NCBI RefSeq assembly: GCF_003334305.1
Contig: NZ_QOWS01000025.1
Length of the DNA stretch: 64,000 nucleotides
From: Escherichia coli
GTDB lineage: Bacteria; Pseudomonadota; Gammaproteobacteria; Enterobacterales; Enterobacteriaceae
Strand: one strand, 5' to 3'
Positions 46,448 to 52,700 of this stretch are shown here, in pieces; the first letter of the stretch is position 1; each line of letters starts with the position of its first letter. Made by a program: the position numbers and the translations under genes. Below the pieces are notes generated by a model. The model made no database searches. It saw nothing but the letters and a program-made list of their open reading frames with translations, and was not told the origin of the DNA.

Positions 46448-48943
46448 TCAGAAGGTTAATTCTGTTTCCAGCAGCGTCAGGATACTTTGTGCATCTTGCG
46501 CGGCAAACAACGACTGGCGGAAGTTTTTATTCACCAGTTTACGCGCCAGCTGCGAGAAGACTTTCACATGATTCATCCCTTCGTTAGCACCCAGCGTCAG
46601 CATGATCACCAGTTCGACTTCGCCCATTTCTGACTGCCAGTCAATCGGTTTCGCCTGCCGGGCAATGCTGATACTGGAATGACGGATCCACTGAGATTTG
46701 GTGTGCGGGATCGCTACGCCAAAACCAACGCCGGTGGTAACAATCTCTTCCCGCTGCCAGACGTCTTCTTCCAGCTCAAACGGATGTTCAGTGCGCCCGT
46801 TAACGCCGAGGTTGCCGCACAGGAACTGGATCGCCTGCTCTTTATTGCTAAAATCCTGATCAACAAAGATATTCTCCAGCGCCAGCAGTGGGCGAACGTC
46901 TTCTTCCGGCGTAAAGGCGGTGAGTAACGCTTCAATTTCCTGCGCACTGCGGCATTCACATGCCTGACGCGCCAGTTCCCGACACGCCTCGCTATCCAGT
47001 TGACGAAGCTGGCTTTTCACCGCCGGAATACGCGGGCTACTCATACTCAGCTCATCCAGGCCCAGCCCAAGCAGTAGCGGCAGATAACGGCTTTCACCGC
47101 CCAGTTCACCGCAAATGCCTACCCATTTGCCCCGCTGATGCGCAGTGGTAACAATCTGCTGCAACATGCGCAGGAACGATGGCGTAATCGGGTTATACAG
47201 CGGCGATACGCGCGGGTTATTACGATCGACCGCATACAGATACTGGGTCATATCGTTGGAGCCGATACTGAAGAAATCGACCTCATCGCAGAAGTGATCG
47301 ATGATGTAGCACACCGACGGCACTTCCACCATGATCCCCAGCGTAATCGTCTCTGCATGACGCAGGCCATCGCGCTTAAGCTCAACGATCGCTTTTTGGA
47401 TCTCGCCCTTTACCCATAAGATCTGATCGAGACTGTGGACCATCGGGATCATCAACTGGGCGTTGCCAAAACTGGCGGCGCGCAAAATCGCCCGTAGTTG
47501 AGTGCGGAACAGGCCAGCAAATTCCGGGTAAATACGTACCGCGCGATAGCCGAGGAACGGGTTCTCTTCCTGGGGAATATTCAGATAAGGAATGCTTTTA
47601 TCGCCACCGATGTCCATTGTGCGGAAGATAATCGGCTTGTCGCCCGCTGCCAGTAGCACCTGCTGGTAGGCTTCAAATTGCTCCTGCTCGTCCGGCGCGC
47701 TGTCGCGATCCATATAGAGCATTTCAGTACGGAACAGTCCAACGCCTTCCGCGCCGTTGGCAAACGCGCCTGGCGCTTCCAGAGCGGTGCCGATATTCGC
47801 CGCAATATCAATACGCTTGTTATCACGGGAATAGGCCAGCTGCGCGGCGGCCTGCGCCTGTTGTTTTTGGCGTTTATCCGCCAGCGTCTGTGCGACCTGA
47901 TAATAACCGCTCACCGCGTCATTCGGGTTAATCGCCAGCACGCCGCACTGGGCGTCAAGCACCGCCGGTTGCCCGGCATAACGGGCAATCGCATCCAGCG
48001 GCAGGCCGCTCAGTACCGGGATCGCCGAGGCGCGGGCCAGAATCAGGGTATGCGAGGTGCGCCCAGTTTTCTCCAGAATCATGCCTGCAAGATTTTTTAA
48101 ATCGAGGCTCAAAAACTGGCTTGGGGTTAAATCCTCGGCTACCAGAATAGTCGGTTTTTCCAGCACCAGATTGTTGCGCGGCTTCAGTTCCGGCCAGGTG
48201 ATATGCAGCAACTGTTCGCTAATATCGCGAATGTCGCTAACACGTTCGCGCAGATAATCACTGGCAGAAGCAGAAAGTTTGGCGCAAACCTGCTCCATAT
48301 TGCTGATGATCGCCGCCCCCAGCCCTTGATGCTGTTCTGTCATCAGACGACGGATATTGCCCGCGAATTCATCATCCTGAATCAGCGACAAATGGGCGCT
48401 GAGGATAGTTTTGCTTTCGCCGTCACGCTCACGCAATTGCTGGTTCAGTTGCTCGGCAAGCGTTGCCAGGCTGTGCTCCAGCCGGGTGGAATCTTGCGCA
48501 CTGGCGGGGATTGCCCGATAACTGTCGAGGCTGTCGCTTTGTAACAGGGTCAGCGTACCCACGCCGACGCCGCTTGCCAGCACATTGCCGTACAGTAAAT
48601 CCGGGTTAAGGCGGCTTAATGAACGCGGCAGCGGATGCGCCGTCAGTTCTGCCTGCGTCGGCTGAACGCTGTCGCTGTCGATAAAGCGCACCAGGATGTA
48701 CTCTTCCAGCACGCGCCGCACCTGCTCTTCATCGCTGCCGCTAATGTTCAGGCTGCAACTGTCATTAAATAAGGTGCCAGTTCCAATCAACGCCAGCGAG
48801 CTTTTAGCATCGGCCTTTGCGTTCTGGCGATGGTTGAAAAAGGTGATTTCGCTTTGCCACTGGCTGCACTGTTCTTTAAGTTCCCACGCCGGACGAGCAT
48901 GTAGACCGTTAGGCAAAGGACAGAGAAATTGAATCGTTAACAT
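46448..48943 (-). CDS. fryA: multiphosphoryl transfer protein FryA (HPr, Enzyme I and fructose-type IIA domains)
   Basis: 831-aa ORF with HPr-like N-terminus, PEP-utilising Enzyme I core and C-terminal IIA domain. Confidence 0.93.
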   Translation of the reverse strand: MLTIQFLCPLPNGLHARPAWELKEQCSQWQSEITFFNHRQNAKADAKSSLALIGTGTLFNDSCSLNISGSDEEQVRRVLEEYILVRFIDSDSVQPTQAELTAHPLPRSLSRLNPDLLYGNVLASGVGVGTLTLLQSDSLDSYRAIPASAQDSTRLEHSLATLAEQLNQQLRERDGESKTILSAHLSLIQDDEFAGNIRRLMTEQHQGLGAAIISNMEQVCAKLSASASDYLRERVSDIRDISEQLLHITWPELKPRNNLVLEKPTILVAEDLTPSQFLSLDLKNLAGMILEKTGRTSHTLILARASAIPVLSGLPLDAIARYAGQPAVLDAQCGVLAINPNDAVSGYYQVAQTLADKRQKQQAQAAAQLAYSRDNKRIDIAANIGTALEAPGAFANGAEGVGLFRTEMLYMDRDSAPDEQEQFEAYQQVLLAAGDKPIIFRTMDIGGDKSIPYLNIPQEENPFLGYRAVRIYPEFAGLFRTQLRAILRAASFGNAQLMIPMVHSLDQILWVKGEIQKAIVELKRDGLRHAETITLGIMVEVPSVCYIIDHFCDEVDFFSIGSNDMTQYLYAVDRNNPRVSPLYNPITPSFLRMLQQIVTTAHQRGKWVGICGELGGESRYLPLLLGLGLDELSMSSPRIPAVKSQLRQLDSEACRELARQACECRSAQEIEALLTAFTPEEDVRPLLALENIFVDQDFSNKEQAIQFLCGNLGVNGRTEHPFELEEDVWQREEIVTTGVGFGVAIPHTKSQWIRHSSISIARQAKPIDWQSEMGEVELVIMLTLGANEGMNHVKVFSQLARKLVNKNFRQSLFAAQDAQSILTLLETELTF

Positions 48944-48967
48944 AACCGCTCCGGGTTAATCAGGAGA

Positions 48968-50005
48968 TCATCTGAAATCCGTCAGTTGAACAACCGTCTC
49001 ACGCGTAAGACGTTGAATAAGGGCAGATAAAAGTTGCTCCATCTGCAAAATGTCGCGGCAATCGGCAATCGATGCCGCGCAATGTCCGTGGCGGGTGGCA
49101 GGCCCCATTACCACTGTGGGTACGCCAGTACCGGTTAAGTGCACCGCTCCGCCGTCCGTGCCGCCGTTGCTGAACATATCTGCCTGCAACGGTACGCCAA
49201 TTTCAGCCGCCACGGTTTCGATCCAGGCGGTAAGTTTTGGCGGCGCAATCAGTGACTTGTCGCTTAACACCAGCATCGGGCCGTTACCAATCTGGCGATG
49301 GTTAGCCGCGCCATAATCAAAGTTTTTCGCCCAGCAGGCGGTATCCAGCACAATGGCGACGTCCGGCGACACCGCGCGGGTAGCGGTTTGCCCACCGCGT
49401 AATCCCACCTCTTCGCTGGAACTTGCCACCAGCCACACCTCCGCAGGCAGTTCGGCATCGTGCAGCTCACGTAGTAACGTCACCAGCAGATAGCAACCGA
49501 GGCGATCATCAAAGGCTTTCCCCATCACCCGCTGGTGAGGGAGAACCTGAAAAGTTGTATCAAAGGTGACGCGATCGCCTGGACGAATTCCCGCCTGCAT
49601 CACTTCGTCATACGAGCGCGCACCAATGTCCACGCGCATGGCGCTGACGTCATTCCCCTGCCGGTCGCCGTCAAGCAGGCCTGGAATTTTGCACTCTTCA
49701 CGGGTGGTGATGCGCACCGGCTGCAGCTGGCGGGCAGCCATGCGCACGTTGCCAACCGGCAGCACATCAATTGCCCCTTCGCGGGAGATGCTACGCACCA
49801 TAAATCCCACTTCGTCCATATGGGCGCAGATCATCACCTTCGGACCTGTCGATTCATTGAGGCGGATCAGCACCGATCCCAGACCATCAAATCGCACTTC
49901 TTTTTGCAGGCGATCCGCTTCTTCCAGCAGGATCTGCCGCACTTCCTGTTCCGAGGAGGCGATCGCATCTGCCTCGCTCAACGCTTTTAATAGCGATAAA
50001 TCCAT
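48968..50005 (-). CDS. ypdE: M42-family aminopeptidase YpdE
   Basis: 345-aa ORF with M42 metal-binding region ([12 protein letters not shown]); embedded in fry operon. Confidence 0.9.
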
Positions 50006-52352: not shown

Positions 52353-52373
52353 AACAATTATCCCTGTCGAATA

Positions 52374-52700
52374 TTACTGTTGTTCAGAGGCAATCATCTC
52401 TTCGATTTCTTTGATGATGCCTACAGCGTTTTTAATTGCGTCCTGCAAAGTGATTTCATAAACGTCGCGTGATTCGAAACGTTCGTTATCTTCCGGGGTA
52501 ACTGCCACGGAATGGATGATGATGGTCGCTTCGGCGATATCCTGCGCCGTCAGGCGATTCTGGATGCCGTCCGCGTCCTGGGTTTCAATTTTCACTTCAT
52601 AACCGGCTTCTACCGCCGCTTCTTCCAGCGCCTGAGCGGCCATAAAGGTGTGAGCCAGGCCCATTGGGCAGGCACATAAGGCAATCAGTTTCTTACTCAT
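52374..52700 (-). CDS. fryB: PTS fructose-like IIB component FryB
   Basis: Start at internal Met (MSKKLIALCACPMGLAHTFMAA) carrying the IIB active-site Cys context, giving 108 aa. Confidence 0.88.
   Translation of the reverse strand: MSKKLIALCACPMGLAHTFMAAQALEEAAVEAGYEVKIETQDADGIQNRLTAQDIAEATIIIHSVAVTPEDNERFESRDVYEITLQDAIKNAVGIIKEIEEMIASEQQ

Follow-up and report, generated by a model that had tools for sequence, protein, structure and literature searches.

Introduction

Why would an operon for sugar transport carry the genes of two aminopeptidases? This question is raised by the fry operon (fryB, fryC, ypdF, ypdE, and fryA) of Escherichia coli, located on the minus strand at positions 46448 to 52700 of a 64,000-nucleotide stretch of contig NZ_QOWS01000025.1, referred to here as the window. 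The operon encodes a fructose-like phosphotransferase system (PTS), which draws on phosphoenolpyruvate (PEP), together with one peptidase of family M24 and one of family M42. Fry is among the few PTS systems of E. coli still without a known substrate, and the reason why peptidase genes sit in sugar-transport operons (fry, frv, and sgc) has been open since the first genome annotation. The fry locus, a standard annotated operon of E. coli K-12 (b2383-b2387), is already catalogued in this species; the new part is the conservation of its PTS–peptidase coupling across phyla. In this work, we describe that conservation and ask what it says about the compound that the system may handle.

Conservation of the PTS–peptidase arrangement

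YpdE was searched against 1.84 billion representative proteins, and the contigs encoding its nearest non-enterobacterial relatives were inspected. These relatives, 43–44% identical to YpdE, are likewise encoded in PTS clusters that include an M24 gene. In addition, a single genome of each GTDB species was scanned with an alignment of the YpdE clade, which gave 80 M42-anchored loci; their open reading frames (ORFs) were labeled by BLASTP, and features were counted when they lay no more than 7 kb from the M42 gene, with any class I/II aminotransferase-fold gene counted as a lyase. All 22 non-enterobacterial loci of the YpdE clade contain PTS genes, and most of them also contain an M24 gene (19), a lyase gene (20), and a gene for a PRD regulator (21). 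Among the 11 Enterobacterales loci, PTS genes were found in 10, an M24 gene in all 11, and a lyase gene in none. The remaining 47 M42 loci look different, with PTS genes in 6, lyase genes in 4, PRD regulator genes in 5, and no M24 gene at all. Adjacency to an M24 gene is thus a property of the YpdE clade, Enterobacterales included (30 of 33 loci versus 0 of 47). The single Enterobacterales misses of PTS genes and of the regulator gene ypdC, as well as two of the three M24 misses in the non-enterobacterial loci of the clade, correspond to truncated contigs. Fisher's test gave p values of about 4e-15 for PTS genes, 6e-19 for M24, and 8e-7 for the lyase, none of them corrected for phylogeny.

In a neighbor-joining tree, the M42 proteins of these modules form one clade, in which the enterobacterial YpdE is sister to the group associated with fructose-type PTS. 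The IIB-IIC-M24-M42 block spans Enterobacterales, Clostridia, Lactobacillales, Erysipelotrichales, and Coriobacteriia. Because 5425 of 5426 complete E. coli genomes contain the fry stretch and the arrangement is conserved across phyla, it is not a chance juxtaposition.

Two types of module and the enterobacterial form

The modules found outside Enterobacterales fall into two types. In type A, the gene order is PRD regulator, IIA(Fru), IIB, IIC, M24, M42, and lyase; it occurs in Caproiciproducens, Hungatella, Enterocloster, and Lachnospiraceae. Its proteins are recognizably those of E. coli, with identities of 70–76% for FryB, 57–64% for FryC, 43–47% for YpdF, and 41–49% for YpdE, and the core order IIB-IIC-M24-M42 of E. 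coli matches that of the type-A loci L006, L020, L028, L030, and L044. In type B, the order is PRD regulator, M42, IIA/IIB/IIC of the Lac/cellobiose family, in some cases an RDD membrane protein (PF06271), M24, and lyase. This type was found in 16 species, from Clostridium, Romboutsia, Terrisporobacter, Enterococcus, Streptococcus, Lactobacillaceae, Faecalibacillus, Erysipelotrichales, Olsenella, and Collinsella. One enzyme set is therefore joined to PTS of two families unrelated to each other, the Fru type and the Lac type, whose IIC proteins belong to TIGR01427 (fructose) and TIGR00410 (lactose/cellobiose), respectively.

The "aminotransferase" of the modules is a C-S lyase of the PatB family, with one example scoring 359.9 bits against TIGR04350 (cut-off 340) and a second example scoring 320.7. 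Cysteine desulfhydrase activity has also been reported for this lyase family (PMC6143707, PMC5767170). The 24 clustered module loci have no glycoside hydrolase, deglycase, or sugar-phosphate enzyme in common, and neither nagA, nagB, nor agaS is conserved in the module loci.

The enterobacterial form departs from this plan at two points. A PatB/MalY lyase gene lies beside the M42 gene in 20 of the 22 other YpdE-clade loci versus 0 of 11 in Enterobacterales, and a regulator containing PRD and EIIA domains is present in 21 of 22 versus 0 of 11. The AraC-type regulator YpdC is found instead in 10 of the 11 Enterobacterales loci, which are all those long enough to show its gene. In E. coli, the gene of a fused HPr-EI-IIA protein stands where the lyase gene would be expected, and ypdC stands where the PRD regulator gene would be. 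The enterobacterial form has lost the lyase and the PRD regulator and has gained EI and HPr fused to IIA, as well as YpdC. The fry operon is best explained as the enterobacterial descendant of a catabolic module that is both conserved and horizontally mobile, composed of a PTS, M24 and M42 peptidases, a PatB/MalY lyase, and a dedicated regulator.

The closest E. coli homolog of the type-A lyases is MalY (40–42.5% identity), which is encoded elsewhere, beside the PTS gene malX (K-12 positions 1699355-1702129). Its identity to the module lyases is about as high as that of YpdE and YpdF to their module counterparts, and it is possible that MalY is what corresponds to the module lyase in E. coli, detached from the operon. 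The alaC gene, which lies near fry in E. coli, was considered for this role and rejected: AlaC is only 19–23% identical to the module enzymes, which belong to the PatB C-S lyase family, and alaC is missing beside the fry genes in other genera.

Directly upstream of one type-B module (L003, positions 153-5862), genes for a fructose-type PTS IIBCA protein, a HAD hydrolase, a SIS-domain protein, a PfkB kinase, and a class II aldolase were observed. This set resembles a tagatose or amino-sugar pathway and is not conserved in other module loci.

Organization of the fry locus

The window is chromosomal DNA of E. coli; its positions 46000 to 53000 are 100% identical to E. coli strain A7, and the RefSeq annotation of that strain lists the same genes. 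Gene families were assigned with curated NCBIfam models, and ORFs were compared with the RefSeq annotation. The five genes lie on the minus strand and are transcribed in the order fryB, fryC, ypdF, ypdE, and fryA; successive genes are spaced 21, 14, −1, and 24 nt apart, and the stop codon of ypdF and the start codon of ypdE overlap by 1 nt (TAATG). The ORF coordinates and families agree with a preliminary description made from the sequence of this stretch, which had pictured a co-oriented, tightly packed PTS operon with two embedded aminopeptidase genes.

The first gene, fryB (52374..52700, minus strand), encodes a PTS IIB protein of 108 aa that scores 87.2 bits against TIGR00829 (cut-off 76.85) and carries its active-site cysteine in the motif CACPMGLAHT near the N-terminus. 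The annotated ATG of fryB is at 52700, and a longer ORF starting with TTG extends to 52751. It is followed by fryC (51105..52352, minus strand), whose 415-aa product is a PTS IIC permease of the fructose family, named "PTS fructose transporter subunit IIC" by the PGAP annotation. Its match to TIGR01427 (157.4 bits, E 5.9e-46) lies 0.15 bit under the curated cut-off of 157.55.

The two peptidase genes come next. The product of ypdF (50005..51090, minus strand; 361 aa) is an M24B aminopeptidase of the Xaa-Pro type that matches the equivalog model NF007310 with 813 bits (cut-off 393). It shows the Pfam layout Creatinase_N plus Peptidase_M24, and the motifs DFGA, SDMTRT, HAIG, VEPG, and RIED are readable in its translation; the PDB entry 5CNX, titled "Aminopeptidase YpdF", is its solved structure. 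The ypdE gene (48968..50005, minus strand) encodes an M42 aminopeptidase of the TET type with 345 aa, which matches the equivalog model NF007421 with 681 bits (cut-off 412). The metal-ligand and catalytic residues H61, D63, E64, D165, D166, E197, E198, D220, and H307 of YpdE are invariant in the alignment of its clade, and PDB entry 1YLO represents the Shigella ortholog. No signal peptide is visible in the translation of either peptidase.

The last gene, fryA (46448..48943, minus strand; labeled "ptsP" by PGAP), encodes an 831-aa fused HPr-EI-IIA(Fru) phosphoryl-transfer protein, with HPr at residues 11-82, EI at 118-674, and IIA-Fru at 687-812. The EI part matches TIGR01417 (505.9 bits versus 341.7) and the IIA part TIGR00848 (141.5 versus 103.5); the HPr part falls short of the cut-off of TIGR01003 (38.3 versus 47.9), and the GLHARPA motif is present nonetheless. 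This motif and the other phosphorylation-site motifs, GRTSHT, ICGELGG, and AIPHT, were all found in the translation, and the Pfam matches comprise PTS-HPr, PEP-utilisers N, PEP-utilizers, PEP-utilizers C, and PTS_EIIA_2. The fry locus is thus a self-contained PTS with a membrane permease and two intact cytoplasmic aminopeptidases. All five operon genes were assigned to PTS, M24, or M42 families, with no SIS-domain deglycase among them, and the family search of the operon proteins revealed no glycoside hydrolase partner. An Rfam scan of positions 41000-58000 gave no family that reached its gathering score.

A rare allele of ypdE carries an 81-bp in-frame deletion (window 49712-49792, codons 72-98) that lies between short direct repeats of GGTGCG. 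Its product has 318 aa and lacks 27 aa where the PDZ-like domain begins. The allele occurs in many draft assemblies but in only 7 of the 5426 complete genomes, as counted with a junction-specific 40-nt query; strains with this allele have an otherwise intact operon. A frequency of about 31% (1681 genomes without a megablast match to the 81-bp segment) was discarded, as the short-query megablast had missed divergent alleles. A 472-aa NCBI protein (P0019) with Pfam matches to both Peptidase_M24 and Peptidase_M42, 99% identical to YpdE, is probably a ypdF-ypdE fusion in one E. coli genome, formed by read-through or frameshift at the 1-nt overlap.

Transcription unit and candidate regulator

The five fry genes very probably form one functionally coupled operon, and a single transcript is expected. 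Since the intergenic gaps leave no room for them, separate promoters for the peptidase genes are unlikely. The possibility that the peptidases are independent of the PTS is countered by this lack of space, by the ypdF/ypdE overlap, and by the conservation of the IIB-IIC-M24-M42 block across phyla, so that the grouping made in the preliminary description holds. A scan for consensus promoters and terminators found no promoter-like site before ypdF or ypdE; it carries little weight, because its totals were at or below shuffle expectation, apart from the terminator of glk. That terminator-like hairpin (52882..52905, minus strand) directly follows glk and delimits the fry transcription unit on its upstream side.

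The region upstream of fryB was aligned across eight Enterobacterales species, several of which carry the fry genes at a different chromosomal place. A −10-like hexamer, CATAAT (52737..52742, minus strand), is conserved in this alignment and marks a putative promoter, while no good −35 hexamer was found there. A conserved 29-bp block, TCCAGTAAATGCATTATTTGTCTGGTAAC (52763..52791, minus strand), abuts the −35 position and is a candidate site for an activator, perhaps YpdC. Given the missing −35 hexamer and the conserved block next to that position, the promoter appears to be activator-dependent. A further conserved element, TCACAC (52814..52819, minus strand), lies about 70 nt upstream of the −10 hexamer and resembles a CRP half-site. 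A complete CRP site was considered and rejected, as the sequence TGTGT-N4-TCACA at about 52834-52847 is wrongly spaced and the conserved TCACAC has only GA-N6 as its partner.

The AraC-family protein YpdC (45588-46445, plus strand; 285 aa) is the candidate regulator of the fry operon. Its gene had been described as divergent; it is in fact convergent with fryA, tail to tail, the two stop codons being 2 bp apart. It is co-oriented with ypdAB, following ypdB after a gap of 12 nt. The Pfam matches of YpdC are confined to the C-terminal HTH_18/HTH_AraC domains; the N-terminal part of about 180 aa has no match and thus gives no clue to a ligand. No intergenic terminator is seen between the two stop codons (window 46443-46450). 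As these are only 2 bp apart, each transcript must end inside the other gene, and antisense effects or transcriptional interference between ypdC and the fry operon are possible.

The six-gene island and its neighbors

Together with ypdC, fryBC-ypdFE-fryA form a six-gene island that moves as a unit. In Superficieibacter, Pluralibacter, an Enterobacter species, and Hafnia, the island lies in a context without glk, ypdAB, alaC, and yfeO, and the adjacency of ypdAB is specific to the lineage of Escherichia, Citrobacter, and Pseudocitrobacter. Since the island occupies other contexts in other genera, its proximity to ypdAB, alaC, and glk is incidental: ypdC belongs to the fry island, and ypdAB is a chance neighbor. 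The G+C content is 0.55–0.58 across the fry operon (window 46500-51500) versus 0.47–0.52 in the flanks, which fits horizontal acquisition of the island.

In the window, ypdA (43129-44826) and ypdB (44841-45575) are on the plus strand and glk (52919-53884) is on the minus strand, all three ORFs matching the RefSeq annotation. The preliminary description had placed the ypdAB two-component system next to the operon, which is correct as to position; as evidence of a functional link it was rejected, because the adjacency is lineage-specific, and the system responds to pyruvate (PMC5552118).

Related PTS clusters

The coupling of a PTS to peptidases had been called unusual, which overstates the case. 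All three M42 genes of E. coli K-12 lie in PTS operons: ypdE in fry, frvX in frvABXR, and sgcX in sgcXBCQAER. FrvX and SgcX fall outside the YpdE clade in the tree, and therefore these M42–PTS associations arose separately, so that such clusters exist in several M42 lineages. Like fry, the frv and sgc operons combine an M42 gene with PTS IIA/IIB/IIC genes and a dedicated regulator, and their substrate is unknown. Unlike fry, they have neither an M24 partner nor a private EI/HPr, and the sgc PTS is of the galactitol type. The sgc operon was still described as having an unknown substrate in 2026 (PMC13343008).

A type-B cluster is found in Lactobacillus sakei LT-13 (LACBS_00568-00576), where genes for PRD regulators, an aminopeptidase, Lac-type PTS IIA/IIB/IIC, an RDD protein, a second aminopeptidase, and MalY follow one another. 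It shares the enzyme set of M42, M24, and PTS with fry and differs in its Lac/cellobiose-family PTS, in having PRD regulators rather than an AraC regulator, in its lyase and RDD protein, and in lacking a private EI/HPr. The MalY protein of this cluster was shown to be a pyridoxal phosphate (PLP)-dependent beta-lyase and a broad amino-acid racemase, and the cluster itself was given no function (PMC5845896). Pairing of a PTS with a PatB/MalY-type lyase is also seen in the malXY operon of E. coli, which encodes a PTS IIBC protein and the beta C-S lyase MalY, and in Clostridioides difficile, where malY lies in the PTS operon CD3027-CD3030 (PMC6143707). In contrast to the modules, no peptidases are reported for these two operons, and MalX is a IIBC protein of the glucose family.

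A third type of cluster was observed in five closely related metagenome-assembled genomes (MAGs) of Lachnospiraceae and in Clostridium sp. Ade.TY (L057, positions 3738-15902; also L072, L074, L083, L087, and L042). Its PTS part consists of a PRD regulator, an RDD-like protein, and Lac-type PTS IIA/IIB/IIC. The enzymes are a GrdB-like protein without selenocysteine, two tandem M42 proteins, an Ntn hydrolase resembling Asparaginase_2/isoaspartyl peptidases, and a PepV-like M20 dipeptidase, accompanied by an unassigned 362-aa protein, CutC, and YitT. The match of the Ntn hydrolase is at family level only (122.7 bits versus a cut-off of 567). PTS operons rich in enzymes that cleave peptides or amides thus occur repeatedly and are not a peculiarity of E. 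coli.

M42 genes also occur in other arrangements. Many loci (e.g., L050-L052, L059, and L065) carry three tandem M42 genes without a PTS. Proteins of about 700–790 aa (P0138, P0146, P0152, P0158, P0160, P0161, P0176, P0205, and P0264) contain two matched M42 stretches, or three in the case of P0146, and the two-stretch pattern suggests fused tandem M42 domains.

Import and phosphorylation of a sugar bearing a non-sugar moiety, followed by its cleavage in the cytoplasm, is also the logic of PTS-dependent catabolism of Amadori/Heyns sugar–amino-acid adducts by gfr of Salmonella (glucoselysine/fructoselysine) and frl of E. coli, and of MngAB, a mannosylglycerate PTS with its hydrolase. A phospho-glycoside hydrolase likewise belongs to glycoside-type PTS operons of the bgl/cel kind. 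Cleavage is performed by SIS-domain deglycases in gfr and frl and by a hydrolase of glycoside hydrolase family 38 (GH38) in MngAB. In contrast, fry encodes neither of these enzymes and has two aminopeptidases instead.

Published phenotypes and activities

The fryCB genes are presumably those formerly named ypdGH. Overexpression of ypdGH raises susceptibility to aminoglycosides, as does that of 17 other carbohydrate transporters (PMC12412646). After prolonged culture in LB, cells with an in-frame deletion of fryA grew better on LB plates, and no function or substrate was assigned to the fry PTS (PMC5364489), in agreement with the preliminary description, which had regarded the physiological substrate as undefined. 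A ypdE deletion mutant of strain UTI89 was outcompeted in the mouse bladder (competitive index 0.297; PMC8767336). The aminopeptidase activity of YpdE is cited in PMC3511314 (its ref. 51) as characterized by Zheng et al. in 2005. A literature search found no substrate for fry or for the Firmicute modules, and no described pathway that combines a PTS, M42 and M24 peptidases, and a lyase; the only reports touching on this combination were a gene map from L. sakei and a PTS operon with malY from C. difficile, neither of them with a substrate.

A possible catabolic role and its alternatives

We consider it about equally probable as not that the fry system takes up a sugar with an attached amino acid or short peptide, which is then trimmed in the cytoplasm. 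FryC would import the sugar or sugar-like compound with its amino acid or short peptide, and the relay from FryA to FryB would phosphorylate it at the expense of PEP. YpdF, acting on bonds before proline, and YpdE, with its broad specificity, would then strip amino-acid residues, leaving amino acids and a sugar phosphate for central metabolism. The sugar phosphate would have to enter central metabolism directly, as no further catabolic gene is present. The sugar part is postulated because it is needed for recognition by IIC and for phosphorylation, and the amino-acid or peptide part because it is the sole thing on which the conserved enzymes can act. In the modules of Firmicutes and Coriobacteriia, the last residue would be removed by the PLP-dependent lyase, the only candidate for this step there, either by beta-elimination at a Ser, Thr, or Cys residue linked through O or S, or by desulfhydration of released Cys, yielding pyruvate. 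In the third cluster type, the Asparaginase_2-type enzyme could perform the analogous step for an Asn-linked sugar. As E. coli has no lyase in the operon, fry may handle amide-linked conjugates or borrow MalY or MetC.

The glycopeptide or amino-sugar conjugate suggested in the preliminary description is a putative substrate that is compatible, in general terms, with the PatB/MalY lyase, the Asparaginase_2-type amidase, and the PepV partners. A wider generalization is more tentative, and we rate it as possible but rather doubtful: the M42-carrying PTS clusters (the Fry type, the Lac plus MalY type, and the Lachnospiraceae type with Asparaginase_2 and PepV) may constitute an unrecognized class that salvages glyco-amino acids and short glycopeptides. 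In such a class, the PTS would take in and phosphorylate the sugar part, and aminopeptidases would shorten the peptide as far as the linkage residue. The bond between sugar and amino acid would then be cut, without any glycosidase, by a PLP beta-lyase (Ser, Thr, or Cys linked through O or S, yielding pyruvate) or an Ntn amidase (N-linked Asn), and E. coli Fry would be a lyase-less derivative within this class.

Several points weigh against a conjugate of sugar and amino acid or peptide as the substrate. The E. coli operon contains no lyase, glycosidase, or deglycase, and thus no enzyme for a non-amide linkage between sugar and amino acid, so the Firmicute model transfers incompletely. We know of no PTS that imports glycopeptides, and Zheng et al. 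in 2005 reportedly found ordinary peptides to be the in vitro substrates of both YpdE and YpdF. No fry substrate, transport activity, or induction condition is known in the literature. The synteny statistics are uncorrected for phylogeny, and some of the loci come from closely related MAGs. YpdC showed no ChIP-exo (chromatin immunoprecipitation with exonuclease treatment) sites under the conditions tested (PMC8464067). The MalY protein of L. sakei also racemizes many amino acids (PMC5845896), which makes the role of the module lyase ambiguous.

Some of these points would suit a cryptic or vestigial operon, in which an orphan fructose-like PTS, silent in nature and in the laboratory alike, merely shares its transcript with YpdE and YpdF as general cytosolic aminopeptidases of unrelated function. 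The lack of a known inducing condition and of YpdC binding in the ChIP-exo experiments, the reported activities on ordinary peptides, the mild expression changes (1.5–1.9-fold, Cpx), and the existence of the ypdE deletion allele are all in keeping with it. We nevertheless regard such decay as unlikely. The IIB-IIC-M24-M42 order is kept across phyla, with M24 adjacency specific to the YpdE clade; the catalytic motifs are all intact; the locus is near-universal in E. coli, with the deletion allele confined to 7 complete genomes; and the ypdE deletion has a fitness defect in the bladder. A narrower version of the glyco-amino-acid model, in which YpdE and YpdF are not peptide trimmers but amidohydrolases acting on a phosphorylated amino sugar or an N-aminoacyl/N-acyl hexosamine (e.g., a thiol conjugate of the cysteine–glucosamine type), appears unlikely to a similar degree. 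Both folds include non-peptidase amidases. YpdF has weak matches to the ectoine hydrolase DoeA and the lyase DddP, and YpdE to DapE and to the M42 hydrolase of the N-acetylglutaminylglutamine amide (NAGGN) osmoprotectant system; the partner lyase family has cysteine desulfhydrase activity, and no module contains a glycosidase. However, aminopeptidase activity of YpdE has been published, according to its citation in PMC3511314, a single amide bond would need fewer than two different aminopeptidases, and the lack of conserved nagA, nagB, and agaS in the modules gives no indication of an amino sugar.

Two further alternatives concern the PTS itself. It is improbable that Fry works mainly in sensing or regulation, as a phosphorelay of the PTS-Ntr or DhaM kind that links peptidase activity or nitrogen supply to the state of PEP/pyruvate and does not import a nutrient. 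FryA fuses a private EI and HPr to IIA, a feature known from other regulatory branches of the PTS, and has a weak match to DhaM, and the pyruvate-responsive YpdAB and alaC are nearby in E. coli; yet that adjacency is not conserved, a full-length IIC permease is present, among the best-conserved parts of the module and 57–64% identical to its clostridial versions, and the Firmicute versions have separate IIA/IIB/IIC proteins with the PRD regulators typical of substrate-induced sugar operons. It is more improbable still that the PTS phosphorylates a hydroxyl-bearing (Ser/Thr) peptide, from which the peptidases would free O-phospho-amino acids and the beta-lyase, where present, would eliminate phosphate to give pyruvate. 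The content of the clusters alone would allow it (several peptidases, a beta-eliminating PLP enzyme, and no sugar-catabolic enzyme in any module), but there is no precedent for such a reaction, and the IIC proteins belong to the ordinary sugar families TIGR01427 and TIGR00410.

Concluding remarks

The comparative result turns a curiosity of the E. coli genome into a defined, testable module that recurs in many gut-associated Firmicutes and in Coriobacteriia. Its recurrence together with a MalY-type lyase and a substrate-responsive PRD regulator points to host- or diet-derived sugars that carry amino acids or peptides. The modules of Firmicutes and Coriobacteriia offer tractable organisms and regulators for finding the inducer, while the bladder fitness defect of the ypdE mutant hints at relevance during infection. 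If true, the glyco-amino-acid model would add a new route for the catabolism of glycoprotein remnants and would give MalY-type lyases a physiological role.

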